DNA of 15,450 nt. Origin: a virus. Its lineage: Duplodnaviria; Heunggongvirae; Uroviricota; Caudoviricetes. The number at the start of each line of letters is the position of its first letter. The stretch's first letter is position 1. The stretch lies in the IMG/VR virus record IMGVR_UViG_2541047931_000009, one strand, 5' to 3'. Under the pieces are notes generated by a model. That model was not told the DNA's origin. It ran no database searches and saw only the letters and a program-made list of their open reading frames with translations. The position numbers were made by a program, and so were the translations under genes. Below are positions 3,953-13,103 of the stretch, piece after piece.

Positions 3953-3975
3953 AAACCCGCTCAGGCGGGTTTTTT
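3953..3975 (+). terminator. Rho-independent terminator about 280 nt downstream of cspB
   Basis: Stem AAACCCGC / GCGGGTTT with TCAG loop, followed by TTTTTATTAT. Confidence 0.6.
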
Positions 3976-4034
3976 ATTATCTGCTTTAAATATATTATTA
4001 AAATATAAAAAATACTTGTTACTAATAAAATCAA

Positions 4035-4205
4035 TCAGGCTACAGCTTTAAGATTTGTCTGGAATACTTTGTTGCAATGAGGGCAGATCAAAAGGGCACC
4101 TTTTTGTACTCTTGAAAAACTGTGTTCTGACTCTTGGGTGCAGTTTGGGCAGGAACATTTAACGAGATAATTACGGCGTGATTTTGAGTTTTTACGTTCT
4201 GACAT
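4035..4205 (-). CDS. Small basic Zn-ribbon protein, 56 aa (CxxC...CxxC), unknown function
   Basis: Minus-strand ATG at 4205 preceded by SD AGGAAAAG at about 6 nt; MSERKNSKSRRNYLVKCSCPNCTQESEHSFSRVQKGALLICPHCNKVFQTNLKAVA. The track ORF (73 aa from 4256) has no SD at its start. Confidence 0.5.
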   Translation of the reverse strand: MSERKNSKSRRNYLVKCSCPNCTQESEHSFSRVQKGALLICPHCNKVFQTNLKAVA

Positions 4206-8205: not shown

Positions 8206-9400
<1,195 letters not shown>

Positions 9401-9417
9401 TTAACGATTCACTGGAT

Positions 9418-10671
9418 ATGCTTGCTGGCTTTTCGCCTGGTTATAAGCAAATAACTGTAGGTGATGATGTTATTAAAATGCCATCCGATAAGGTTGTTAG
9501 CTTCAAACGCGCATCAGGTGCAACATACATTAATAAATCAGGAGTATTAACCGTTGCTGAAGTTGACGAACCGCGATTTGAACGAGAAGGTTTGCTGATT
9601 GAAGGACAAAGAACCAACTATCATCTTAATTCACTTACGCCATCTAAGTGGGGAGCTACAACAAGTGTAACTATAACAGAAAGTGGTGTTGATGAGTTTG
9701 GCTTTACTTATGGGCGGTTTCAAATAAAGGACGAAAAAATTGGGACAAATACGACAATGAATATCGCTGCGGTTTCAGGAGGAAGAGGTGTCGATGTTAC
9801 TGGAACTGAAAAGTATGTTACAACATCATGTCGTGTAAAAAGCGATAGTGCTAATATACAATGTCGTATAAGATTTGAAAGATATGACGGGTCCGCATAT
9901 TTTTATCTGGCAGATGCATATCTTAATATAACAGATATGTCCATTAGGAAAACGGGAGGAGGGGCTGCAAGAATAACCGCCCGAGCGGAGAAAGAATCTA
10001 ATGGATGGATTTATTTCGAGGTTACATATCAATCTGAAGCTATTGATAATATGGTTGGCTCTCAGATCCAAATTGCTCCACCTGTTTCACCTGGAACTTA
10101 TTTGGGCGGGGAATATTTGGATGTTACGACACCACAATTTGAAGGCGGCTCATGCGCATCATCTTTTATCATTTCCGATACAGTTGCATCAACGCGAGCA
10201 AGCGATATTGTTACATTGCCTTGTAAAAATAACATGGCCAGCAAACCTTTAACCTGCATGGTTGAAGTGAATAAAAATTGGTCTATAGCACCAAATTCCG
10301 CGCCTAGAATTTATGATATAACAGGATTTAAAACAAAAGACGACGCTTTTGTTTTTGCATTCAGAAATACAGCAGGTAGTGTAGGAACTCCATATGTTCA
10401 ATTTGGTAATCCAATATCATTTCCACCTGGAAATTACCCAAGAAAGATTATCGCTGTATATAGAATAAAAAGCGATGGCAAGTTTCAGGCTGGCTGCAAT
10501 GGGGTTTTATCAACACCAGCATCAACAACGTGGAAGAGTGTTAGTGGTGCTACAGGTATAAGGATTGGAGGCCAGACTACAGCCGGCTTACGTCATTTAT
10601 TTGGTTATATCAGGAATTTTAGAATATGGCATAAAGAATTAACCGATGCGCAAATGGGAGAGATAATATAA
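9418..10671 (+). CDS. Tail-fibre distal (receptor-binding) segment with C-terminal LamG/concanavalin-like domain; 5-prime truncated by IS5 (417 aa remain)
   Basis: Reading frame is open from the IS5 junction (stop at 9403-9405 lies in the flank); C-terminus ...GLRHLFGYIRNFRIWHKELTDAQMGEII is a typical LamG-domain ending; sits in the tail-fibre position before tfa and pin. Confidence 0.55.
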   Translation: MLAGFSPGYKQITVGDDVIKMPSDKVVSFKRASGATYINKSGVLTVAEVDEPRFEREGLLIEGQRTNYHLNSLTPSKWGATTSVTITESGVDEFGFTYGRFQIKDEKIGTNTTMNIAAVSGGRGVDVTGTEKYVTTSCRVKSDSANIQCRIRFERYDGSAYFYLADAYLNITDMSIRKTGGGAARITARAEKESNGWIYFEVTYQSEAIDNMVGSQIQIAPPVSPGTYLGGEYLDVTTPQFEGGSCASSFIISDTVASTRASDIVTLPCKNNMASKPLTCMVEVNKNWSIAPNSAPRIYDITGFKTKDDAFVFAFRNTAGSVGTPYVQFGNPISFPPGNYPRKIIAVYRIKSDGKFQAGCNGVLSTPASTTWKSVSGATGIRIGGQTTAGLRHLFGYIRNFRIWHKELTDAQMGEII

Positions 10672-10952
10672 TGCGAGATTTAATTATCAAATTCACAGAC
10701 AAGGCCGACTTTTCGGCCTTTATGAAGAGTGCTGGCTATTATGATGACGAGTCGATGCAGGATGATATTCTTATTGACGTGATAGGTAACGTGTACAAAG
10801 AAACCGGAGAACTTACTGAAGATGGCGAGCCGGTATGTGTTAAGGAAGACGGATATTTTGTAAACGTGCGCATCATTAATGATGCAAAAAAATCGTCAAT
10901 ATTCGATAAATACGCGGTTGTTGTTGAGCATCAACTTCGTGGCTGGATGTGA
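10671..10952 (+). CDS. Hypothetical acidic protein, 93 aa, translationally coupled to the fibre gene
   Basis: ATG overlaps the upstream stop (TAATG at 10669-10673); MRDLIIKFTDKADFSAFMKSAGYYDDESMQDD...; no recognisable motif. Confidence 0.5.
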   Translation: MRDLIIKFTDKADFSAFMKSAGYYDDESMQDDILIDVIGNVYKETGELTEDGEPVCVKEDGYFVNVRIINDAKKSSIFDKYAVVVEHQLRGWM

Positions 10953-10961
10953 GGCAGGAAA

Positions 10962-11666
10962 ATGGCTACATCGACAGTAATTCCAGGAGATATCACCAAG
11001 CTAAAGGGGGATGTCAGTAAAGCTAAGGAAGATATTTCATCAATTAGCAGAAAAGTATCAACGCTTCAGACTGAGATGACCAGTGCAAAGCAGGATATCA
11101 GCTCCAGATACACAAAAACTGAAGTTGATAATAAGCTGAAAAACAAAGTGGAAGTGAACGATCTGGAAAGTGGTCGTTATGGCGGAGATTTTTATCCACT
11201 GACAGGTCGTGAAGCGTTTTATTTATGGAATTTGGCCACGACTACAGCGGCGGCAAACCTTTATCTTAATCCTGACCGTGCAATTTCGTCTGTGCTGCGG
11301 TCAACATCGTCTATCCGCTATAAACATTCAGTAGAGACAATAGATTCAGAGCACGCCGATCTCATTTTCAGGATGCGCCCTGTGTGGTACAGGTCGCAAT
11401 GCGAAAATGACAGGCGTGACTGGGGATTCTACGGATTGATTGCCGAGGAAGTAGGAGAAATTGCTCCTCAGTTTGTACACTGGCGACCAGCTAACGAAGA
11501 TGATGCTCCTGAAGCTATTTCCAGCAATGGCCTTGTTGCCGAAGGTGTAATGTACGAACGTCTGGTTGTTCCACTGATTCACCATATCCAGAAACTGACT
11601 GAAAGAGTTGATGAACTTGAGTCAGAATTAAAGTTGTTATTAACTTCCCGAAGCGATATTAGATAA
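10962..11666 (+). CDS. Short fibre-like protein: N-terminal coiled coil plus C-terminal peptidase-S74-like intramolecular chaperone domain, 234 aa
   Basis: Heptad-like N-terminus (DITKLKGDVSKAKEDISSISRKVSTLQTEMTSAKQDIS); C-terminal block SIRYKHS...FRMRPVWY...GFYGLIAEEVGEIAPQFV...YERLVVPLIHHIQKLTERVDELESEL resembles the self-cleaving chaperone domain of endosialidase and T5-type fibres. Confidence 0.6.
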   Translation: MATSTVIPGDITKLKGDVSKAKEDISSISRKVSTLQTEMTSAKQDISSRYTKTEVDNKLKNKVEVNDLESGRYGGDFYPLTGREAFYLWNLATTTAAANLYLNPDRAISSVLRSTSSIRYKHSVETIDSEHADLIFRMRPVWYRSQCENDRRDWGFYGLIAEEVGEIAPQFVHWRPANEDDAPEAISSNGLVAEGVMYERLVVPLIHHIQKLTERVDELESELKLLLTSRSDIR

Positions 11667-11676
11667 AGGAGGAGTA

Positions 11677-11970
11677 ATGGATATAACACCTTTTCTTCAT
11701 GCGCTTTGTGCTGTGGCTGCGCAGACACTGGTTGGTCTTTTTACCGGAAACTGGGCTTATGGGGCGATAGCTGGTTGTACGTTCTTCATTGCGCGTGAAC
11801 ACACCCAGGCAGAATATCGCTGGATTGAAATGTTCGGGCATGGCAAGCGGATTAACATGCCGTGGTGGGGCGGTTTTGATCCGCGTGTTTGGGATGTGGC
11901 AAGCCTGATGGATTTTGCTGTGCCGGTGGTGGCGTGTCTGCTGATCTGGCTGTTGGTTAATCGTGGGTGA
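11677..11970 (+). CDS. Small integral membrane protein, 97 aa, about 3 TM segments, unknown function
   Basis: Strong SD AAGGAGGAG 5 nt before ATG 11677; hydrophobic segments FLHALCAVAAQTLVGLF, WAYGAIAGCTFFIA, LMDFAVPVVACLLIWLLV. Confidence 0.6.
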   Translation: MDITPFLHALCAVAAQTLVGLFTGNWAYGAIAGCTFFIAREHTQAEYRWIEMFGHGKRINMPWWGGFDPRVWDVASLMDFAVPVVACLLIWLLVNRG

Positions 11971-11980
11971 AAAAAGGTGA

Positions 11981-12100
11981 GCTGTATATGCAACGGAGGA
12001 AGAAACCCCGTTGCTGGAAGCCAGGAAAAAGTATCGGGTGTTGCTGAACCGTGTTGATACGTCAACTGCACAGGATATTGAATGGCCAGCACTGCCGTAG
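11981..12100 (+). pseudogene. Relic 3-prime end of a tail-fibre assembly (tfa) gene, last ~39 codons only
   Basis: Frame from 11981 to TAG 12098-12100 reads [39 protein letters not shown], closely matching the recalled lambda Tfa C-terminus (...[29 protein letters not shown]); an in-frame TGA lies at 11978-11980 just upstream. Confidence 0.6.
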
Positions 12101-12197
12101 GGTAAAACATATAAATTCTATAATTAGATGTATCTTTCCATTTACGGCAAGGAAGGGGGCTTGGAAGACGTAAAGCATCTCACACCGAGATTATTTT

Positions 12198-12788
12198 TTA
12201 TATGTCAGGTGTCTGAAGTTTTGCTTTGGCTCTTAAAATGGTTTGCCGCGAGGTTTTGAATTCCCGGGCAATGGCACTTATACTTACACCTGACTTAATC
12301 CGTTCGAATACCACCTGTTTCTGTTCTTCATTTAACACAGGTGGTCGACCAAAACGTTTCCCTGCGCCCCGGGCTCTTACTATCCCGGAATGAGTGCGTT
12401 CAAGTAAAAGGTCTCGTTCAAATTCAGCGACTGCTGAAATTACTTGCATCATCATTTTTCCTGTTGGACTGGTCAGGTCAATGCCCCCCAATGCTAAGCA
12501 ATGCACTCTGATACCTGTTTCGGTCAGTTGTTCCACTGTTTTCCTGATATCCATTGCATTACAACCAAGGCGATCCAATTTTGTCACAATCAATTGATCA
12601 CCACATTTCAGGCGAGCAAGCAACCGGTTAAAACCAGGACGCTCACTGGTTGCTGCTGAGCCGCTAATGTGTTCTTCGATTATTTGCTGAGGTTTGATTT
12701 TAAAACCTGCACTTTCGATTTCCCGGCGTTGATTTTCGGTGGTCTGATCCAGCGTTGATATCCGACAGTAAGCAAAAATTCGAGACAT
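12198..12788 (-). CDS. pinQ: Serine recombinase (resolvase/invertase family), 196 aa
   Basis: N-terminal catalytic region [15 protein letters not shown]... (active-site Ser context), LDRLGCN motif, C-terminal HTH ([20 protein letters not shown]); convergent with the fibre module. Confidence 0.88.
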
Positions 12789-13103
12789 AGTGAGACTCTA
12801 TACGAAATTGGTGTTCATATCATAATGCATCTCAGAAAATAATTTTGATTATTTTTGTGCATATTTGTATGTACACGTTCGAAAATAAACGAATGCGTAT
12901 GCAACCCCGTAATTTTGGTGAGACCCAAAATCGATTTTGTGAAAAATGGCTTTAACTCGGTTTGTTTTTCGAGTTCCAGGCGGACTCAAGGAAGAAGAAT
13001 AGTGTTGCGTGTTATTTTAACCAGATTTCAAGTTGTTTGGTCGTGGAAAAGTGGAGCAAAATGTTGTTAAAGTGGAAAATGATAAAAAAGTAAGTTAATT
13101 ATA

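Follow-up and report, generated by a model that had tools for sequence, protein, structure and literature searches.

A widespread small membrane protein gene that travels with phage receptor-binding cassettes

An accessory gene of fibre cassettes

IMG/VR virus record IMGVR_UViG_2541047931_000009, a stretch of 15,450 nucleotides (nt) referred to here as the window, corresponds to the right end of a cryptic, Qin-like prophage of Escherichia coli. At positions 11677-11970 on its forward strand lies an open reading frame (ORF) of 97 amino acids (aa), starting with ATG, that encodes a small membrane protein of the PHROG 1443, or 'Ybl63', family. This ORF is a genuine gene under purifying selection, and its product is an inner-membrane protein of about three helices from a catalogued but uncharacterised family. 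The gene moves by recombination with the receptor-binding (tail-fibre or tailspike) cassettes of phages, as accessory cargo and not as an autonomous moron in the sense of Hendrix and Juhala. It belongs to an ordinary kind, the phage accessory membrane proteins, and is very common, highly conserved and tied to host-range cassettes. Its function is judged less firmly, and a part in superinfection exclusion, or in otherwise protecting the cell, is tentatively preferred.

Family size, selection and database status

The ORF is a full member of PHROG 1443, which it matches over its whole length (E = 2.7e-58, residues 1-96 against profile positions 1-96 of 97). A collection clustered at 90% contains 579 homologues, and a profile search of 1.84 billion representatives found 445 clusters at 50% identity; the family appears to be a stand-alone one, all 150 of the 445 clusters that were listed being 63-146 aa in length. 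Pairwise dN/dS lies between 0.12 and 0.25, for Escherichia phage copies and for chromosomal orthologues from Aeromonas and Leclercia alike, one nearly identical pair outside this range having too few changes to measure. It is on these numbers of homologues and clusters, and on this constraint, that the ORF is regarded as a real gene, and they bear out the proposal of a first-pass annotation of this DNA that it encodes a conserved small membrane protein.

The gene is carried by 1900 of 5426 complete E. coli genomes (35%), BL21, E. coli C and Nissle 1917 among them, with a median of two and up to seven copies among carriers, and is also found across the Proteobacteria. Every listed E. coli match that spans most of the gene is labelled hypothetical, as is the identical coding sequence in the RefSeq genome of BL21(DE3) (WP_000355603.1, 'hypothetical protein'); 'Ybl63' is the UniRef name of the product. 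PHROG 1443 itself is without assigned function or literature. Pfam and NCBIfam contain no family for the ORF, Pfam models gave nothing at E <= 1 when applied to 34 diverse relatives, and no family of the PADLOC-DB 2.0 defence models matched at E <= 1. A sequence search of the PDB with the family profile detected no relative, its sole match having E = 0.41, and BFVD yielded nothing significant besides a 42-aa fragment of the PHROG 1443 family. No paper was found by accession, by 'Ybl63' or by phrog identifier. Nothing on the 97-aa gene is contained in De Paepe 2014 or Mutalik 2020, and the recombination described in the phage-training paper of Borin et al involves ECB_00512, a J homologue, and not the locus of the ORF. 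The interest of the gene lies in its being so widespread with neither a Pfam model nor a paper under these names, and in its transfer together with phage host-range genes; 97 aa, a confident structural model and a handful of invariant polar residues make it a cheap experimental target.

Movement with receptor-binding cassettes

With the exception of an intact copy in Aeromonas phage ACP1, the gene is the last on its strand after the receptor-binding genes in every phage or prophage context examined, these comprising siphoviruses, myoviruses and podoviruses. In 79 of 80 Escherichia contigs from IMG/VR, a side tail fibre gene (stf) of the type found in the window is followed by a gene for a 93-aa protein (p93), then by either nothing, a 234-aa fibre gene or a 346-aa fibre gene, both fibres having Peptidase_S74 (S74) domains, and then by the membrane protein gene; wherever these contigs extend further, a tfa relic and pinQ come next. 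With three states in Escherichia, the interval from the 93-aa gene to the membrane protein gene looks like a small swappable position for a second fibre. The order in phage 21 and in a prophage of strain Nissle 1917 is J, stf, a 92-aa gene and the membrane protein gene, beyond which sitDCBA lies on the opposite strand; this convergent sitABCD iron/manganese transporter operon is classic prophage cargo.

Fibre, tfa, the gene and the sheath gene FI succeed one another in the P2-like Halomonas phage phiHAP-1, while in the epsilon15-like phiv142-3 the gene stands between a pectate-lyase-type spike and lysis genes. The P22-like 611R6 has a tailspike, an OafA acetylase, a fibre remnant, the gene and int. 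In both a P2-like prophage of Leclercia and a Desulfovibrio prophage the gene directly adjoins an S74-terminated spike, the gap being 0 nt, and a Comamonas prophage has a 2520-aa J-like protein followed by a 72-aa protein and the gene. The gene follows stf in phage 21 and in the Nissle prophage, and is missing from the stf-tfa regions of lambda and HK97.

When the DNA of copies with different upstream genes is aligned, homology starts only at the Shine-Dalgarno sequence (SD) or the ATG and extends beyond the stop codon into the relic of tfa, the start of which is also found 3' of the homologue in phage 21. This relic (11990-12100, forward strand) carries the annotation of a tfa truncated at its N-terminus and defines the cassette's 3' junction; from ~11990 to ~12090 it has close to 90% identity to the last ~100 nt of lambda tfa. 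Judging by these alignments, therefore, the gene is the 3'-terminal part of a fibre cassette of foreign origin, the right-hand junction of which falls within an ancestral tfa gene, and this ancestral tfa was likely the anchor for recombination by which cassettes were swapped. The ORF is in turn compositionally foreign to the fibre cassette, with a GC content of 0.524 and a third-position GC content (GC3) of 0.51, as against 0.395-0.437 and 0.26-0.43 in neighbouring genes.

The surroundings seen by the first-pass annotation, a 234-aa fibre protein with an S74 domain upstream and a tfa relic downstream, were recovered, and its suggestion of a moron can be retained in part. The gene's accessory nature follows from its slot, its polymorphic presence or absence, its composition and the orphan copies kept by hosts; its slots match the sites of accessory or conversion genes in other phages, namely P2 fun(Z) and the O-antigen gene of epsilon15, and in 611R6 the gene itself is found next to OafA and int. 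What does not hold is autonomy, as the transferred unit begins at the SD, no promoter was detected by the scan described below and a scan for a terminator-like site after 11970 found none. Homology to a fibre-assembly or housekeeping protein, which would have argued against a moron, was not found, and the gene is widespread in related prophages.

Relics and solitary chromosomal copies

Four virulent phage lineages keep only degraded fragments of the gene, as unannotated or tiny hypothetical ORFs directly 3' of tailspike or tailspike-like genes. Siphovirus HC6 (3965-4120 of stretch L161) and the N4-like PBM-3 (3965-4120 of stretch L163) both carry a frameshifted 51-aa ORF ending in RRRANIPWWGGFDWRAWDLPSLLD. 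Their S74-terminated spikes (L161 1382-3961 and L163 1283-3961) have the C-terminal ~750 residues in common, one substitution apart. The spike and the relic, taken together, clearly point to a tailspike transfer across morphotypes. The Kuttervirus KFSST3 has a 41-aa N-terminal fragment (L162 3980-4105) after the gene of a 675-aa 'hypothetical protein', without a Pfam match, that adjoins a tailspike gene, and the phAPEC8-like anhysbys has a 42-aa fragment (L169 3495-3623) after a GDSL-esterase protein that is read here as a spike. These relics show that the gene was transferred along with the 3' ends of fibre genes, and that the genes 5' of it can be maintained in the absence of the membrane protein.

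Conversely, intact copies are found on their own in bacterial chromosomes. Several Aeromonas species have a solitary copy between genes for Pirin and a PA4780-type RIO1-like kinase; that this 'RIO1' neighbour could be a lipopolysaccharide kinase was considered and rejected, it being a protein kinase of the PA4780 type. Five Leclercia loci, representing three or more species, have a solitary copy flanked by a peptidase M3 gene and a MetE-like/ABC-transporter cluster, and in sphingomonad-like genomes one directly follows ligA. A neighbourhood search revealed no constant chromosomal partner, the neighbours including LigA, Pirin, DAHP synthase, cyclophilin and peptidase M3; the crude ORF clustering of these neighbourhoods is unreliable in high-GC genomes and was used qualitatively only. 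The Leclercia gene might be all that is left of a prophage at the corresponding site. In E. coli, Qin is ~7 kb from the M3 peptidase gene dcp, and the solitary Leclercia copy adjoins a peptidase M3 gene.

Since there are relics in four virulent phages and solitary copies in chromosomes, the membrane protein is dispensable for the building of fibres. The possibility of a Tfa-type fibre assembly protein was rejected on the same patterns, the copies after the tailspike or tailspike-like genes of four phages being degraded and the chromosomal copies orphans, and there being no match in Pfam or NCBIfam.

Predicted structure and conserved residues

AlphaFold2, supplied with an alignment of 54 sequences, predicts three helices (aa 4-23, 26-52 and 74-96) with a pLDDT of 92.3, joined after the second by a loop (aa 53-73). 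Helix 1 (11686-11745, forward strand, as for all parts of the ORF) is hydrophobic and contains the conserved H8 and Q16. Helix 2 (11752-11832) has a hydrophobic part of 14 residues, aa 26-39, followed by the amphipathic conserved motif AREHTQAEYRWIEM. The conserved Trp-rich loop (11833-11895) reads FGHGKRINMPWWGGFDPRVWD, and helix 3 (11896-11964), the most hydrophobic, includes D79 and P83; the protein terminates in LLVNRG. Mean hydropathy is 1.4 for aa 4-23, 1.47 for aa 26-39, over only 14 residues, and 2.4 for aa 74-94. Helices 1 and 3 are firmly hydrophobic, and the second transmembrane helix is marginal; the TMHMM run of the phage 21 annotators gave two transmembrane domains for the homologue. 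'About three' helices, as first annotated, is consequently a fair description.

In 54 close relatives P62, W64, G65, G66, F67, D68 and W72 are invariant. Among distant relatives E41 and W72 remain so, H8, R40, Q44, A45, E46, R58 and P83 are conserved in at least 90%, and D79 is mostly kept. Of the loop that was originally picked out as conserved, the WWGGFDPRVW part deserves that description, and the 'GHGK' part is not kept across the family. By the order of the helices, the model is expected to place the polar residues (H8 near the start of helix 1; R40, E41, Q44 and E46 at the end of helix 2; D79 near the start of helix 3) and the Trp-rich loop on one face of the membrane, a pattern suggestive of binding or catalysis at the membrane interface.

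The positive-inside count, a family mean of 5.9 against 0.84 Lys and Arg residues, favours a cytoplasmic loop, while the acidic 'MD' N-terminus of nearly all members favours the opposite orientation. The statement that there is no lipobox needs a correction, as IAGC (aa 31-34) formally fits the pattern. A lipoprotein can nevertheless be rejected, given that the n-region preceding this motif is only 'MD', with no basic residue, that the Cys lies 33 residues in, and that Cys34 is replaced in most distant relatives.

Signals for translation and transcription

The SD AAGGAGGAG occupies 11666-11674 on the forward strand. Its core AAGGAGG (11666-11672) overlaps the upstream TAA stop codon (11664-11666), which is separated from the ORF by 10 nt; spacing to the ATG is 4 nt, or 5 nt counted from AGGAG, and the duplex predicted with the 3' end of 16S rRNA has an energy of -11.6 kcal/mol. 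The near-ideal SD noted in the first-pass annotation is thus real at this locus. Duplexes of -8 kcal/mol or lower are predicted for 68% of Escherichia-type copies, and a class of 27 copies, common in E. coli, has TAGGATGA/TGGGATGA at the SD, with -6.4 kcal/mol for its commonest variant, TAGGATGA; the mean in taxa other than Escherichia is -5.2 kcal/mol. The strong SD is local to some E. coli copies and is not a trait of the family.

From its arrangement, the ORF behaves as the terminal cistron of a fibre operon, and in the Leclercia prophage it is joined to the upstream gene by a TAAATG stop-start junction. A terminator-like hairpin (GGGGCCGAGCGCCCC followed by TTTTATT) is found ~20 nt 5' of the homologue's ATG in the 346-aa fibre context and in the P22-like 611R6. 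Given this hairpin, and by analogy with lambdoid phages, a copy in the 346-aa fibre context would be expected to be read mainly by antiterminated late transcription. Within the window, an insertion sequence of the IS5 family (transposase gene at 8238-9254, forward strand) cuts the operon upstream, and the strong SD is therefore no proof of high expression here. The claim that the protein is strongly translated, which was drawn solely from the SD, is not sustained, and transcription of the ORF in the window is doubtful.

Candidate functions

All of the functional readings considered here are indirect. Under the one that is tentatively preferred, superinfection exclusion or another accessory function that protects the cell, the protein would be produced together with the late fibre transcript; in lambdoid phages this transcript continues through terminators. 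The protein would act in the cell envelope through its polar cluster (H8, R40, E41, Q44, E46, D79, W72 and the Trp-rich loop), and might bind a conserved inner-membrane component so as to hinder the entry or the productive adsorption of phages. Such a role would explain why bacteria retain solitary copies. If exclusion or envelope remodelling is indeed the function, this would bear on the engineering of host range for phage therapy, on the fitness effects of prophages and on how thousands of 'hypothetical proteins' are annotated.

Several known systems offer partial precedents. HK97 gp15 is likewise a small, prophage-borne inner-membrane protein encoded within the tail gene region; it is reported (Cumby et al. 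2012) to be a moron-encoded superinfection-exclusion protein of the inner membrane, non-structural and of benefit to the host. It has 62 aa, and its annotation names it a moron product and gives its gene a putative terminator immediately downstream, for which the ORF has no counterpart. The phiHAP-1 homologue, between tfa and FI, is in the slot of P2 fun(Z), a non-essential gene that blocks T5 and maps between the tail-fibre genes (G) and FI. This resemblance is positional only, because Fun(Z) has ~528 aa by its coordinates, is encoded on the other strand and has no sequence relationship to the ORF product. Cor and Llp are receptor-blocking lipoproteins encoded beside receptor-binding genes, and the present gene, too, links a small envelope protein to a receptor-binding gene; its product, however, is predicted to be a polytopic inner-membrane protein and is no lipoprotein, IAGC not being conserved.

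Some observations weigh against an exclusion or protective role. There is no sequence relationship with HK97 gp15 (hhalign probability 0.7%). A scan for sigma-70-like promoters on the forward strand of 10900-11676 found none, by consensus only, so that weak or embedded promoters could escape it; without a promoter of the gene's own, expression in a repressed prophage, on which classic exclusion depends, is hypothetical. The signals for topology conflict, the K/R-rich turns and C-terminal tails of chromosomal copies opposing a cytoplasmic loop. Finally, in the jumbo Aeromonas phage ACP1, which we take to be virulent, an intact 87-aa homologue is placed between two fibre-like genes, and this copy fits a role in the lytic cycle at least as well.

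A rather unlikely alternative is that the protein modifies envelope glycans or their lipid carriers, as a miniature membrane enzyme or inhibitor that alters O-antigen, capsule, enterobacterial common antigen or lipid-linked precursors, each swapped cassette for a polysaccharide-directed tailspike thereby bringing its own means of altering the receptor. The upstream proteins are indeed mostly polysaccharide-directed (Peptidase_S74 spikes, pectate-lyase-like spikes, Tail_spike_N and a GDSL esterase), and the conserved His, Glu, Arg and Asp near the membrane interface resemble a catalytic or ligand site. Epsilon15 keeps an O-antigen ligase-family gene (gp21) at this site, and in 611R6 the gene is one gene away from the OafA O-acetylase; like gp21, OafA/Oac and GtrABC, the protein is a membrane protein encoded directly after a temperate-phage tailspike gene. 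It is much smaller than these seroconversion proteins, however, and is not homologous to them, and neither the ORF nor the 34 relatives searched with Pfam show similarity to the GtrA, Oac, Wzy or PAP2-type families. Its identity of 56-65% across Escherichia, Aeromonas and Comamonas, the surface glycans of which are unrelated, is unlike glycan specificity and argues for a target independent of glycans; the gene is also carried by prophages of the rough strain E. coli B, and the positive-inside count puts the conserved loop of most members in the cytoplasm. A role in the lytic cycle as a helper of the fibre operon, whether in fibre maturation or export, virion release or the blocking of progeny from re-adsorbing to the dying cell, seems very doubtful. 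It would suit a gene that is always directly 3' of fibre genes on the same strand, with gaps of 0-16 nt or overlapping stop and start codons as at the coupled junction in Leclercia, for which no promoter of its own was found, which in Escherichia is fixed to one stf/p93 module, and which is intact between the fibre-like genes of ACP1. It fits poorly with the degraded relics of four virulent lineages, with solitary copies kept under purifying selection with no phage genes nearby, and with upstream partners that are structurally unrelated fibres, those of the S74 type carrying an intramolecular chaperone of their own.

The probability of a holin, antiholin or other lysis-timing protein is close to negligible. 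At ~100 aa and with three hydrophobic helices the product resembles class I holins such as lambda S105, and lysis genes come next in phiv142-3, PBM-3 and possibly Comamonas; yet comparison with lambda S by hhalign gave a probability of only 0.3%, no lysis PHROG or Pfam family was matched, and both the charged C-terminal tail and the dual-start motif are missing. The genomic location also differs from that of lambda S, for the gene is followed in the window by the tfa relic and pinQ and in phage 21 by sitDCBA, with no lysis genes, and chromosomes stably retain it as a lone gene. The first-pass view that the protein is unrelated to holins, spanins and Cor-type lipoproteins is upheld. The remaining probability belongs to a function of another kind, not yet imagined. 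A broader conjecture, decidedly unlikely as it stands, is that the whole family consists of miniature membrane-embedded enzymes or inhibitors, the His/Glu/Arg/Asp cluster of which, at the membrane interface, would target an envelope pathway conserved in Gram-negative bacteria, for example a lipid-linked glycan carrier or an inner-membrane factor for phage entry, and that these have been packaged with receptor-binding cassettes and repeatedly domesticated by bacteria. Were this true, each swap of host range would carry a matching function in protection or exclusion.

Neighbouring features of the window

Bases 9400-12800 of the window show 100% identity with BL21(DE3), REL606 and further B strains, while the whole window has no full-length match in any complete E. 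coli genome. The IS5-family transposase gene, with DDE_Tnp_1 and DUF772 domains, interrupts the fibre operon 5' of a truncated stf; in BL21(DE3) an IS3 is found near the site at which the window has IS5. The remaining C-terminal part of stf (9418-10671, forward strand; phrog_1419), having lost its 5' part, encodes GTA head-spike-fibre and Laminin_G_3 domains. The 234-aa mini-fibre with the Peptidase_S74 intramolecular-chaperone domain (10962-11666, forward strand) is optional and, where present, separates the 93-aa gene from the membrane protein gene. Downstream of the tfa relic is the serine invertase gene pinQ (12198-12788, reverse strand; Resolvase and HTH_7 domains). Two ORFs, of 117 aa (11757-12110), for which there was no Pfam family match, and of 60 aa (11659-11841), overlap the membrane protein gene on the reverse strand and are presumably spurious.

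The 93-aa gene (10671-10952, forward strand; phrog_1361) encodes an acidic soluble protein that is the usual partner of stf in Escherichia. The best 120 of its 214 matches are all from Escherichia, each at least 81% identical, and it is much more narrowly distributed than the membrane protein encoded downstream.
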